A stretch of 64,000 bases of DNA from Candidatus Hodarchaeota archaeon (GTDB lineage Archaea; Asgardarchaeota; Lokiarchaeia; Sigyniarchaeales; SOKP01): assembly GCA_048886685.1 (NCBI GenBank), contig JBHLKM010000008.1, forward strand, positions 64,001 to 128,000. The letters run 5' to 3'. Position numbers and translations under genes: made by a program. Below are positions 80-3,663 of this stretch, one piece after another. The notes beneath the pieces were generated by a model. The model did not search any database. It was not told the DNA's origin and was given only the letters and a program-made list of their open reading frames with translations. Position 1 is the first letter of the stretch. Every line of letters starts with the position of its first letter.

Positions 80-913
80 TTATTTTTTCATTGCGGCAAC
101 CTTGATACTTTCTATTTTTAGATTGGAAAAAATTGCTCCAGTAGAATCTTTTATTTCAACGTCTTTAAATCCAGCACTTTCTATTTTTTTAAGGTATTCA
201 TCCTTTAAGATTGCCCCCGAGACACACGCTACATATGCATCAATAGAATTCTTAATATCTTCGGGTAGCTCCTCCTTAAGAACTATGTCAGATACCATTA
301 ATTTACCACCTGGTTTCAATACACGGTAAGCTTCTTGAAAAACCTTATCTTTATCCGGTGAAAGATTAATAACACAGTTTGAAATTATAAGATCTGCGGT
401 ATTATCGGCTACAGGTAAATTTTCAATCTCACCTAGTCTGAATTCTACATTCTCATAATTGCCTTTGTATGCATTTTCTCGTGCTGTATCAATCATCTGT
501 GGCGTCATGTCTACACCAATTACTTTCCCTGTTTTTCCAACTTTATTTGCAGCTAAAAAACAGTCAAATCCTGCACCAGAACCTAGATCAACAACCGTTT
601 CACCCTCCTTTATTGAAGCAAATGCCGTTGGGTTTCCACAACCTAAACCTAAATTCGAACCTTCGGGTACACTTTTTTGTTCTTCTTCTGTATACCCTAT
701 TCTAGAGCTATAATTTTGTGATAAACTCGTATCCCCACAACAAGAGCTTGAAGAATTTATTTCAGGTGTTGTAGAAGGACCACAACAGCTTGAACAGCTC
801 GTTTCCGGGACCGTAGATGGGCTACAACAACTATAACCTTGTGAGCGTTCCGCAATTTTTGCATATCGTTCTCTCACGATCCCCCGTATTTTATCATCTT
901 GCATTTTTACCAT
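80..913 (-). CDS. arsM: Arsenite S-adenosylmethionine methyltransferase
   Basis: LGLGCGNP, VDLGSGAGFDCF, GVDMTPQM, IISNCVINL and YVACVSGA motifs typical of ArsM; Cys-pair-rich N-terminus. Confidence 0.93.
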   Translation of the reverse strand: MVKMQDDKIRGIVRERYAKIAERSQGYSCCSPSTVPETSCSSCCGPSTTPEINSSSSCCGDTSLSQNYSSRIGYTEEEQKSVPEGSNLGLGCGNPTAFASIKEGETVVDLGSGAGFDCFLAANKVGKTGKVIGVDMTPQMIDTARENAYKGNYENVEFRLGEIENLPVADNTADLIISNCVINLSPDKDKVFQEAYRVLKPGGKLMVSDIVLKEELPEDIKNSIDAYVACVSGAILKDEYLKKIESAGFKDVEIKDSTGAIFSNLKIESIKVAAMKK

Positions 914-954
914 TTTCTTCCCTCCATTTCTTTTATTTTTTATAATTTAATTTC

Positions 955-1758
955 TTATTTCTTAATACCTTTGAATAGACAATACCCTAATTTGCCATCC
1001 AAGACTACCTTCACGAATTTTTGTTGATTTTTAAGTGCGATTTTTAATCCTTCCTCTCCATACTTTTGAGTTATATTGTTCATTAGAATTGCTAATTCGG
1101 ACTGGGTATATATGTCTGAAAAATCTTTTACGTCTCGATCTTTTCGAATTTTCCAAAACATTTCTGGCTTTGACCATTCATCAAACTCAGTTTCAATCTC
1201 CTTCACGCCTGCTTTCTTTAACATATTAATCCATTCATCATATTCCAAGGGAGTAGTACCATACCTTTCAGAAATTTCGTCTTTTTCTTCATCTGAGAGT
1301 TTCTTACGCCAAGTTGATTCATGAATTACGATTATACCTCCTTTTTTGGTAACTCGCACCATCTCATCCAATACCTTCTGAGAGTCATCTGGTATACCTA
1401 CAGCACATTCATTAATAGCTACATCAAAAGAATTATCTTCAAATGGTAAATCTTGCGAATCACCTATTTTAAATTCAGTTAAATCTTCAATATTCTCCCT
1501 CTTCGCATTTTCCATTGCTGATCCAACCATTTCTTCAGCTATATCTAGGCCAGTTACCTTAACACCATATTCTTTAGCATAAAAAATAGATTGTGTGCCT
1601 CTACCACTTGAGACATCCAAAATTTTCATCCCAGGTTGTAATTCCGCAAGTTCACCCGTTCGTTGCGTTAATGCCATCCCGCCGGGATGTAATGCTTCAA
1701 TACCACTTATTTCGATTATATCTTCTATTGTTGGTTTATACAATCCTTTCCTTTTCAT
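955..1758 (-). CDS. Class I SAM-dependent methyltransferase
   Basis: LHPGG, ILDVSSGRG motif I, LPFEDNSFD and EMVRVTKKGG; 41 bp upstream of arsM on the same strand. Confidence 0.85.
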   Translation of the reverse strand: MKRKGLYKPTIEDIIEISGIEALHPGGMALTQRTGELAELQPGMKILDVSSGRGTQSIFYAKEYGVKVTGLDIAEEMVGSAMENAKRENIEDLTEFKIGDSQDLPFEDNSFDVAINECAVGIPDDSQKVLDEMVRVTKKGGIIVIHESTWRKKLSDEEKDEISERYGTTPLEYDEWINMLKKAGVKEIETEFDEWSKPEMFWKIRKDRDVKDFSDIYTQSELAILMNNITQKYGEEGLKIALKNQQKFVKVVLDGKLGYCLFKGIKK

Positions 1759-1837
1759 ACCGATCTTCTTTTAGCTTTTCTAAGGATAATTAAAAATATG
1801 TTGATTAAGTATAAAATATAAATTTTCAGAAAAAATC

Positions 1838-1895
1838 TTTTGATCCTAAATAATCAATATAAATATATAAAGGTTCCGGATATTTCGGATCCGAA
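1838..1895. promoter_or_regulatory. Candidate MarR operator sites upstream of the methyltransferase-arsM pair
   Basis: Perfect palindrome TTCGGATCCGAA (1884-1895) and TATTTAGGATCAAAA on the minus strand (1838-1852); related copy at 2446-2462. Confidence 0.5.
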
Positions 1896-1944
1896 CAATA
1901 ATACAAAAATTAAAATTTAAATTTTCTATTCAAAACGACTAAAA

Positions 1945-2430
1945 TTAATAGCATTTTTCCAATCCATCTAATTCAAACGAGTTTGAAAGTTTATTTAACA
2001 AACTGGTTAACTTTTCTAAATCTTCAGATGTGAAACCTTCACAACAATTCTTCAAAATGATCTTTAGTGGGGGTGTAGTGGATTTCATTTCCTTTCCTTT
2101 TTCAGTAAGCTTAACAAGAACACTTCGTCTATCTTCAGGATTATTCTCTCTATATACTAAATCATTCTTCTCCATGGTATCTATTATTCCTGTTATAGTT
2201 GAGGGGGAGCAGCAACATGCAGAAGCCAGCTCTTTAAACTGCTTCCCATCAGATTTCCATAATTCCAATAATATTGAGTATTGGGGAGGAGTAAGATTTT
2301 CACTTTTTACAACTCGACGTTGTAATTTCTCAAATTTTTTGTTTAAAAGATTAATCAATTGGAAGATTTCAGAAAAATTAAGAGTGTCCCGATTACTATT
2401 TTCCAATTTAGAATCACACATTTCAGACAT
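1945..2430 (-). CDS. MarR-family transcriptional regulator, Cys-rich
   Basis: LTPPQYSILLEL, wHTH ELASACCCSPSTITGIID, wing DRRSVLVKLTEKG. Confidence 0.92.
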   Translation of the reverse strand: MSEMCDSKLENSNRDTLNFSEIFQLINLLNKKFEKLQRRVVKSENLTPPQYSILLELWKSDGKQFKELASACCCSPSTITGIIDTMEKNDLVYRENNPEDRRSVLVKLTEKGKEMKSTTPPLKIILKNCCEGFTSEDLEKLTSLLNKLSNSFELDGLEKCY

Positions 2431-2462: not shown

Positions 2463-2641
2463 ATTTATATCCTTAATAAATAATTTTAAGTAATCATTAT
2501 TATTCTTTTTGTTGATTATTTTTATTTCATAAGTATAAATATGATAAATCTAGACTCTAAAGATTTATATGTATGAAAGACATTAGAATATTTATATAAG
2601 ACAGAATGTTGTATAATTTTAAAAAAATAACGACAAAAAAT

Positions 2642-2757
2642 GGCTCCTGTCAATCCCCTGGATTTTTGTCTTTTGGTAGTGTAATTCGTTACACTTAAAA
2701 ATTTACCTTCTCCTACTTAATGGATTTGACCTCGTATTGAGGTTCTTGGCAGGAGCC
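2642..2757 (+). ncRNA. Putative structured non-coding RNA of unknown family
   Basis: 12-bp closing stem GGCUCCUGUCAA/UUGGCAGGAGCC; hairpin AGUGUAA-UUCG-UUACACU; hairpin GACCUCG-UAU-UGAGGUU; the non-Watson-Crick pairs are G-U on the + strand; TATA-like sequence upstream and pyrimidine run downstream. Confidence 0.6.
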
Positions 2758-2817
2758 TCCCTTTATTATCAAACAATTTTAGTAATAGACTAATGTTTAA
2801 AAAGGCTCTTTAAAAAA

Positions 2818-3663
2818 TCATAATAATAGAAAGAGTTCTAACAAGTACATGTCTAAATTTAAATCTTTTAACAATTCCATGTTGTTAAAAATATAACTAT
2901 AAACGTTTTCTTCTCGAAAATATTTTAGGCATAAATTATCCCCTTTTACTTCTTTTAGTACATTAACAACTTGGGTAAGTAAATGTTTTAAACTATCGAT
3001 AACCAATTCTTTATCACATTTAATAAGATTAATATCTACTATATCAAACCAAGATTCTTTTGAGAAAGAAATATTTTTCAATTCTGGTTTTTCCTTACAT
3101 ACTTCTTGTTCTTGATAGGATTCGTAAACTAAATCTATGTGGTCCAATATTTCATTTTTTGATTTACTGTACATCTTATTTTCAATGACATTTCTCAGCA
3201 TAATGAAAATATTCTGAAATATTCCTAAGATATCAAAAAAATCTGCTGTTTGAGTTAGTGTTTCAACCTCCTCCCATTGCTTATAATAATCTTCAATTAG
3301 TTTTAGAAATGGGCGAAAAATGTTAATATCACCATCCCAATTATGTCCTTTCTTTTCCCAAACTGGATTAAATTCTTTTATAAACGCATTCTTAATGACT
3401 TCTAATCTAGTCTTTAAAGTATCTGTTTTCATCTCCTTTGTACCAGCTGCGACAAAGAGGAGATTGTATTTTGGTTCTACAATATATATCCATCTCAATC
3501 CACCCATTTCTATGGAATCAATGGATTGTTTGAATTCCATTATAGAAAATTGGTTAAATGCCGTAAGAAATCCAGAAACAATATCTTCATCGGCATCTGT
3601 TTTCAAAAATGATTTATATAACAGTTTTATCCCAGAGTCACTCTCAACGATCCAAATAATCAT
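2818..3663 (-). CDS. Longin-like domain protein (Asgard eukaryotic-signature type) with helical C-terminal region
   Basis: N-terminal pattern IWIV..SGIKLL...DEDIVSGFLTAFNQFS...IDSIEMGGLRWIY...LLFVA resembles longin/roadblock folds. Confidence 0.7.
   Translation of the reverse strand: MIIWIVESDSGIKLLYKSFLKTDADEDIVSGFLTAFNQFSIMEFKQSIDSIEMGGLRWIYIVEPKYNLLFVAAGTKEMKTDTLKTRLEVIKNAFIKEFNPVWEKKGHNWDGDINIFRPFLKLIEDYYKQWEEVETLTQTADFFDILGIFQNIFIMLRNVIENKMYSKSKNEILDHIDLVYESYQEQEVCKEKPELKNISFSKESWFDIVDINLIKCDKELVIDSLKHLLTQVVNVLKEVKGDNLCLKYFREENVYSYIFNNMELLKDLNLDMYLLELFLLL

Follow-up and report, generated by a model that had tools for sequence, protein, structure and literature searches.

The question raised by this locus is whether a short GC-enriched island, lying in an AT-rich spacer of the window (the whole 64,000-nucleotide stretch analysed), encodes an RNA and, if so, what kind of RNA it is. 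Checking against the sequence confirmed that the element extends from 2642 to 2757 on the plus strand (116 nt) and is closed by a helix, P1, of 12 bp including one G-U pair (2642-2653/2746-2757). Its GC content is 41%, compared with 17% across the remaining spacer. The folding z-score is -5.8 on the plus strand and -4.0 on the minus strand, and none of 200 shuffled sequences was equally stable. The two inner hairpins, the closing helix, the U-rich motif and a TATA-like box are located where the preliminary description of this DNA had placed them. The features of the locus are as follows:

1945-2430, minus strand: gene for a MarR regulator heading two methyltransferase genes (Pfam), the divergent neighbour
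2564-2571, plus strand: TATA-like box about 30-36 nt upstream of the leader motif, probably the functional one of the two
2591-2598, plus strand: second, candidate TATA-like box TTTATATA, from which the leader would be about 20 nt
2598-2607, plus strand: leader motif AAGACAGAAU, complementary (G-U allowed) to the U-rich core and probably near the transcript start
2636-2642, plus strand: 5' boundary, AAnnAU followed by G1, conserved (148 copies)
2642-2653, plus strand: 5' strand of P1, a closing helix of about 8-17 bp across the family, with 10-35 double changes per pair and co-changes on the tree
2657-2677, plus strand: invariant core CCUGGAUUUUUGUCUUUUGGU, 91-100% conserved per position (n=102 sequences)
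2661-2669, plus strand: U-rich motif GAUUUUUGU, identified from sequence
2662-2676, plus strand: deepest part of the core, A-U5-GUC-U4-GG, retained in the sister family too
2663/2664, plus strand: intron site 1, between GGAU and UUUU, for bulge-helix-bulge (BHB) introns; empty in the window copy, with 29-40-nt introns in many homologues
2678-2695, plus strand: P3 hairpin of 7 bp with a variable loop; double changes at 7/7 pairs
2696-2727, plus strand: pyrimidine-rich, subtype-specific linker; location of BHB intron site 2 (subtype B) and of the additional hairpin seen in sister-family copies
2728-2744, plus strand: P4 hairpin; double changes at 5/5 modelled pairs; lost in a few genera (absent from L247, L253 and L266)
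2746-2757, plus strand: 3' strand of P1, from folding and covariation
2758-2769, plus strand: 3' tail N-C-C-Y-UUU, with C at +2/+3 in 76% and U at +5 to +7 in 74-84%
2818-3663, minus strand: 281-aa longin-like gene, the convergent neighbour, fixed beside the orthologous RNA copy (synteny only)

Position 2757 is followed by UCCCUUUAUU, and the tail is a probable terminator or processing signal. At the 5' boundary, A occupies -6 and -5 in 84% and 78% of the 148 copies, A occupies -2 in 88% and U occupies -1 in 74%.

The element is one member of a hitherto undescribed Lokiarchaeia gene family encoding small structured RNAs, and is very likely a real RNA. A covariance-model search detected 1-18 copies per genome in 121 of the 129 genomes of its own family (probably GTDB SOKP01), covering 12 of 13 genera. 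The source genome has four copies, the three others (C12:78085, C24:17210 and C7:79139 minus) sharing the identical 21-nt core. Refined models also found well-formed copies in 11 of 14 genomes of a sister family, after removal of one match within an ORF; 8 of these 11 genomes stood outside the input of the refined model. An earlier view, based on exact-core searches, that the RNA is confined to a single family was overturned by these better models. The sister-family RNA has lost CCCUGG and gained an extra hairpin, having three inner hairpins rather than two, and has kept UUUUGUCUUUU (invariant in both families), GG, P3, UGAUUU, P4 and P1. By inference, the cultured strain Loki-B35 (genome G054) probably carries the family; Ca. 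Lokiarchaeum ossiferum B35 was described in PMC9834061. Copies in G054 lie on the minus strand at C1:3151867-3151991, C1:2498070-2498197 and C1:2878167-2878295, and among other closed genomes copies lie at G043 C1:1198524-1198657 (minus) and G049 C1:1882154-1882274 (plus).

Beyond these two families, no credible copy was found, at the sensitivity used, in two further Asgard classes (83 and 61 genomes) or in three genomes from other Loki families, and an exact-pattern search of 398 genomes of the phylum gave nothing credible. Three weak matches in another Asgard class were dismissed as noise, as they overlap ORFs or lack the fold. Matches in records labelled Patescibacteria, Thor or Odin are probably mislabelled or mis-binned, except for L147, a chance match. 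A single one of the viral matches is a true, though diverged, family member: it sits on a viral contig of 225 kb (L214:5-136; IMGVR_UViG_3300029288_000001), and an HNH endonuclease gene lies upstream of it. Irregular arrangements were observed as well: tandem copies about 290 bp apart (G135:C14; L231 and L233/L237), a second partial core directly after one copy in G054 (L437), and hairpin inserts after P3 in L181, L251 and L277, which have no obvious BHB and resemble the additional hairpin that sister-family copies have gained. Fragments with the U-rich core and without the full fold, one of them repeated twice (L068 in G002:C7, L069 and L046:15632-15691), may be either decayed copies or separate binding sites.

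Comparison of 17 diverse copies with Rfam 15 by cmscan, the check proposed in the preliminary description, gave nothing credible at E-values up to 1-10. The core string occurs in no searchable paper (subscription papers being outside the coverage), and strings from the sister family occur in only two papers of the searchable literature, both unrelated. By structure and distribution, the family would represent a new RNA class of putative function.

The fold is well supported by comparison of homologues. Among 102 distinct own-family sequences, compensatory change was found at 23 of 23 modelled pairs in P1, P3 and P4. Paired cells account for 94.7% in the alignment, compared with 72% after shuffling and 30-46% when the register was slid, and the pair-type count was reached by none of 500 shuffles. 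The alignment had been fitted to the model, hence changes were additionally counted on a tree, giving 158 pair-keeping co-changes against about 26 expected, or 6.9 per pair in partners versus 0.65 in a non-partner control. Covarying stems together with a conserved U-rich motif in Asgard homologues, to which the preliminary description had looked for support, are thus both present. Two smaller pairings that it proposed did not hold up: AAUCC/GGAUU is possible in only 4 of 102 homologues, and the GGUA/UACC flank in only 20 of 102, counting any 4-bp partner for GGUN. Non-Watson-Crick stem cells read on the plus strand comprise 117 G-U and 26 A-C, and this excess indicates an RNA on the plus strand, as had been suggested, antisense to both neighbours; the plus strand also folds better than the minus strand in 83 of the 102 homologues.

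The paired regions conserve only shape, while the U-tract core conserves sequence identity. Across the family the core AUUUU(U)GUCUUUU(U)GG hardly varies, with a single case of U-to-C change over ten tract positions in 102 sequences, and its non-U bases are as invariant as the uridines. The AU5G string alone is weak evidence, as had been cautioned, since it occurs at chance level (3620 sites in the genome); in this RNA it sits within the 21-nt block conserved at 91-100% per position. The U-tract had been called unpaired. Its place is indeed between the helices P1 and P3, yet folding predicts a weak 4-bp hairpin, GGAU/GUCU, in the own-family core (-3 kcal/mol, z -0.3), so the core may be partly paired. 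In this hairpin a UUUU loop is closed by GUCU pairing with GGAU (window 2660-2671 versus L432 and L445); the GGAU precedes GUCU in own-family copies and follows it in those of the sister family. A palindromic operator, AAGACAA-N5-TTGTCTT, was considered and rejected, no perfect site being present in the genome.

Many copies carry inserts of 29-40 nt at two exact sites, one within the core between GGAU and UUUU (2663/2664) and the other in the subtype-B linker, and removal of the insert restores the family consensus base for base. The window copy itself has no intron; copies L356, L381 and L403 of the same subtype have site-1 introns, one copy has two introns, and the C12 copy of the source genome (subtype B) holds a site-2 intron at C12:78154-78182. 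All 12 inserts found in genomes at the two sites form a canonical BHB, against a null of 0.05-0.7%, with about half of the 12 coming from motif-biased patterns. A metagenome search whose pattern left the insert sequence free gave 23 distinct inserts of 29-40 nt in 13 sequence families. [quoted passage not shown] The features of a BHB substrate, with criteria modelled on 10.64898/2026.10.13.758758, are found in the homologues: a 4-bp central helix, two 3-nt bulges, a flanking helix and exact restoration. The source genome encodes EndA (2 genes) and RtcB. Inserts would have to be spliceable only where the sequence acts as RNA, and they are therefore the strongest argument for transcription and against an element acting only as DNA; likewise, restoration of the core by their removal indicates that the core matters as RNA. 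The known hosts of such introns are chiefly tRNA and rRNA, together with a small number of mRNAs. Many tRNA genes in genome G000 are interrupted, several non-canonically or repeatedly (e.g. C1:17820-17981, C1:218424-218598 and C7:6016-6116), and ARAGORN therefore miscalls their anticodons; a Sec tRNA lies at C1:221073-221165.

The genomic context points to an independent gene. The 281-aa longin-like gene (weak Fuz_longin_1 match, E=0.019) is found at 25 of 30 loci of the orthologous RNA copy and is syntenic across the genus. The gene on the other side changes, the MarR neighbour being present at only 3-5 loci and therefore not part of the RNA element. The region 80-2430 (minus) contains the Cys-rich MarR gene, then two methyltransferase genes, the last ArsM-like with N-terminal Cys clusters, and is possibly an arsenic-methylation unit variably present beside the RNA. 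Three RNA loci (the window locus and two others) are syntenic across many genomes and the remaining copies are scattered; 153 of 394 neighbours are singletons, all four flank orientations occur, and the median distance to the next ORF is about 280 nt. Recent duplicates mostly share 150-370 bp comprising the TATA box, leader and RNA, with ragged ends, the TATA box being kept 75-85 nt before G1 and no target duplication being visible. This sharing of promoter and RNA with ragged ends fits DNA-level copying together with the promoter, and does not fit a MITE.

A leader motif, GRCARRR(R)T, occurs upstream in 31 of 148 copies, about a fifth, against 2.6 in shuffles (maximum 10) and 1 downstream. 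It is found 75 times on the sense strand and 8 times on the antisense strand, A-to-G changes in it are enriched (ordinary transition bias could explain part of this excess), and it shows no peak before protein genes. In most motif-bearing copies a TATA-like run precedes the motif by 25-37 nt. The second TATA-like motif at this locus has a counterpart in subtype-A orthologues and in no others. In the predicted nascent fold the leader motif pairs with core positions 2664-2672. As to expression, one intron-less contig of 151 nt and depth 2 from a sediment RNA run spans just 2640-2767; it is the sole family contig in a single RNA run and cannot show strand or ends. RNA run X1 (share 0.05) gave no information on habitat. 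With covarying stems, all orientations relative to neighbours and no Rfam family, the proposal of a stand-alone structured small RNA in an Asgard archaeon is borne out, and the window RNA is very likely a real stand-alone RNA gene. Its multi-copy nature and the BHB introns go beyond that proposal.

Other explanations of the locus as something other than such a gene were weighed against these data. A non-autonomous mobile element (MITE), or a DNA site for a protein, could account for scattered copies, some of them near-identical and as many as 18 in one genome, and for the paired ends of the element. The preliminary description had named dispersed copies with target-site duplications and 12-bp terminal repeats as the signature of a MITE; dispersed copies were found, but no target-site duplications or fixed ends, since the ends differ between paralogues and covary. 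The G-U strand bias, the three syntenic loci, the promoter-sized ragged flanks and the core-splitting inserts, removable only at the RNA level, likewise make this explanation extremely improbable. Cis regulation of an adjacent gene, by a riboswitch or attenuator in its leader or 3' UTR, would fit subtypes B and C, which are followed by genes on their own strand (radical SAM, Hel308-like helicase), and the switch-like pairing of leader with core. However, at the window locus both adjoining genes run antisense to the RNA, the downstream gene is on the opposite strand in 45 of 116 fully classified copies, and the median gap of about 280 nt to the next ORF and the RNA's own U-rich tail also make cis regulation very improbable. 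Equally poor is the case for a micro-peptide (MAPVNPLDFCLLVV, or that of the PGFLSFG frame) translated from a leaderless mRNA. There is an AUG directly before G1 in 74% of copies, and the window copy has ORFs of 14 and 30 codons, but the AUG-led frame of the core varies (24, 35 and 12 of 71 over the three frames, with none in some copies), third codon positions are invariant, and A stands at -1 in 20% of copies.

The RNA was also compared with known RNA classes. The likeness to Sm-class snRNAs and U7 lies in a small, stand-alone, multi-copy RNA with a U-rich motif between helices. The Sm-site resemblance noted in the preliminary description holds insofar as the motif is conserved; the strict consensus R-A-U4-6-G-R is not matched, the core reading G-A-U5-G-U with U as the last base in 102/102 and thus no purine after AU5G. 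The core is closer to the Sm site of U7 snRNA, AUUUGUCUAG (PMC11417402), sharing UUUGUCU but not the 3' AG, in a comparison made after the fact. Unlike Sm-class snRNAs, the window RNA has a second U-tract, base-paired ends and no guide region with a target; it has no sequence homology to them (no Rfam match), and its family is confined to two Lokiarchaeia families. Archaeal tRNA genes resemble it in the G1-C terminal pair, the N-C-C tail, a probable 5' leader and, when intron-containing, in introns of 29-40 nt that occupy exact positions and form a canonical BHB. The family nevertheless lacks a cloverleaf, T-loop and anticodon arm and has no ARAGORN or RF00005 match, the window contains no tRNA gene, and no alignment to any tRNA was reproducible. 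Descent from tRNA (CU-GGA-U, intron at a 37/38-like place) was rejected: the one alignment in its favour, to the intron of an AT-rich tRNA gene, was borderline (family-wise p 0.047) and was not reproduced with two other subtypes, and a profile found nothing.

Y and vault RNAs are about 100-140 nt long, with paired ends, a pyrimidine-rich interior, a U-rich tail and several paralogues, and the window RNA is similar in all of these. In contrast to Y RNA, it has no conserved bulged Ro-binding helix, its P1 sequence varies freely, and the genome lacks TROVE/Ro60. With 5S rRNA it shares the length of about 120 nt, a terminal helix, dispersed copies and a similar pyrimidine tail, tails like N-C-C-Y-UUU also following the 5S genes of the sister family. 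However, there is no RF00001 match, the helix order is different, and helices I-V with loop C are not found; the sister family has canonical 5S (12/14) in addition to the window RNA family. A separate 5S rRNA gene, circularly permuted so that the 3' half leads, and with BHB-forming ends, was observed at G000:C12:45328-45510 (minus) and in L297 and L299-L301. This permuted gene accounts for a strong RF00001 match in only 2 of 129 own-family genomes, and with it the idea of a 5S replacement, raised by the missing canonical 5S, was rejected. SRP RNA and RNase P RNA are each encoded elsewhere in the source genome and the window RNA matches neither, in agreement with the preliminary description, which had set it apart from tRNA, 5S, SRP and RNase P RNA. 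The consensus has no conserved C/D boxes or ACA motif, and no significant guide target was found.

The best reading of these data, held with moderate confidence, is an independently transcribed, trans-acting RNA of a ribonucleoprotein, its U-tracts docking a protein that would most likely be of the Lsm/SmAP type. That the core is a protein-binding site is fairly likely. U-to-C change is all but absent from the core, the pattern to be expected where a protein contacts individual bases, and among the readings considered base-specific protein recognition fits the core best. The contrasting reading is an antisense guide or chaperone RNA, whose core pairs with a conserved RNA or with mRNAs. Its best target is 16S rRNA near helices 23/24, where pairing with positions ~712-730 is possible for 18 of the 19 core bases (-24.7 kcal/mol), the best or joint-best rRNA site. 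However, 51 of 718 dinucleotide shuffles do equally well (p=0.07), and CCCUGG has been lost in the sister family with the 16S site unchanged. Five of the pairs are U-G, where a guide should tolerate U-to-C change, and its rarity argues against a guide. Pairing with 23S, SRP, RNase P and 5S RNA is at chance level and the best genome-wide complement of the core is not unusual (14 nt, versus 11-17 in shuffles), leaving a guide function quite improbable.

For the protein-bound RNA favoured here, transcription from the TATA promoter would give a precursor with a leader of 20-60 nt, the 5' end of which may mask the U-tracts during RNA synthesis, perhaps against premature termination. Intron-bearing copies would be spliced by EndA and RtcB. 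The mature RNA would present two U-tracts (A-U4/5-GUC-U4/5-GG), read base by base by the protein; an Lsm/SmAP ring would be the likeliest partner, with the RNA as scaffold or titrating decoy for the ring. Four Lsm genes are present in the source genome, three with the D-x-[YH]-x-N and R-G motifs that act in U binding in SmAP structures. Lsm genes adjoin the RNA at none of the copies examined, and are widespread in archaea (control genomes), unlike the RNA. The assignment of Lsm as partner of the core is accordingly a tentative one. A non-Lsm, lineage-specific RNA-binding protein or enzyme, with the RNA as decoy, antitoxin or nuclease cofactor, would suit the confinement to two families, the invariance of the non-U core bases, the range of 1-18 copies and the copy on the viral contig; but no neighbour such as a toxin or nuclease recurs among copies and the source genome has no TROVE/Ro60 gene, and this partner is considered somewhat unlikely. 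A more specific form of the Lsm reading, in which the ring sits on the U7-like site and the snRNP-like particle passes through the tRNA-splicing pathway, would be unlikely; the ring would possibly be heteromeric, given the three motif-intact paralogues. Direct ancestry to snRNAs is scarcely credible, being made much less likely by the fact that searches of other Asgard classes did not recover the RNA.

The searchable literature yielded no class of structured small RNAs peculiar to Asgard archaea, and the present family is near-universal in the two largest Lokiarchaeia families searched and strongly constrained. It extends BHB introns to a small non-tRNA RNA, with many distinct introns at one site. 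The Asgard tRNA intron census does not mention non-coding or non-tRNA hosts and leaves open how BHB introns arrive (10.64898/2026.10.13.758758); the intron variety at one site offers a new handle on this arrival. Asgard archaea are close relatives of eukaryotes, and which RNAs their Lsm proteins bind is relevant to the origin of the snRNP. If the snRNP-like reading is true, the particle would be a prokaryotic analogue of, and a test bed for, snRNP assembly. The apparent presence of the family in cultured strains makes its expression, splicing and partner testable now.
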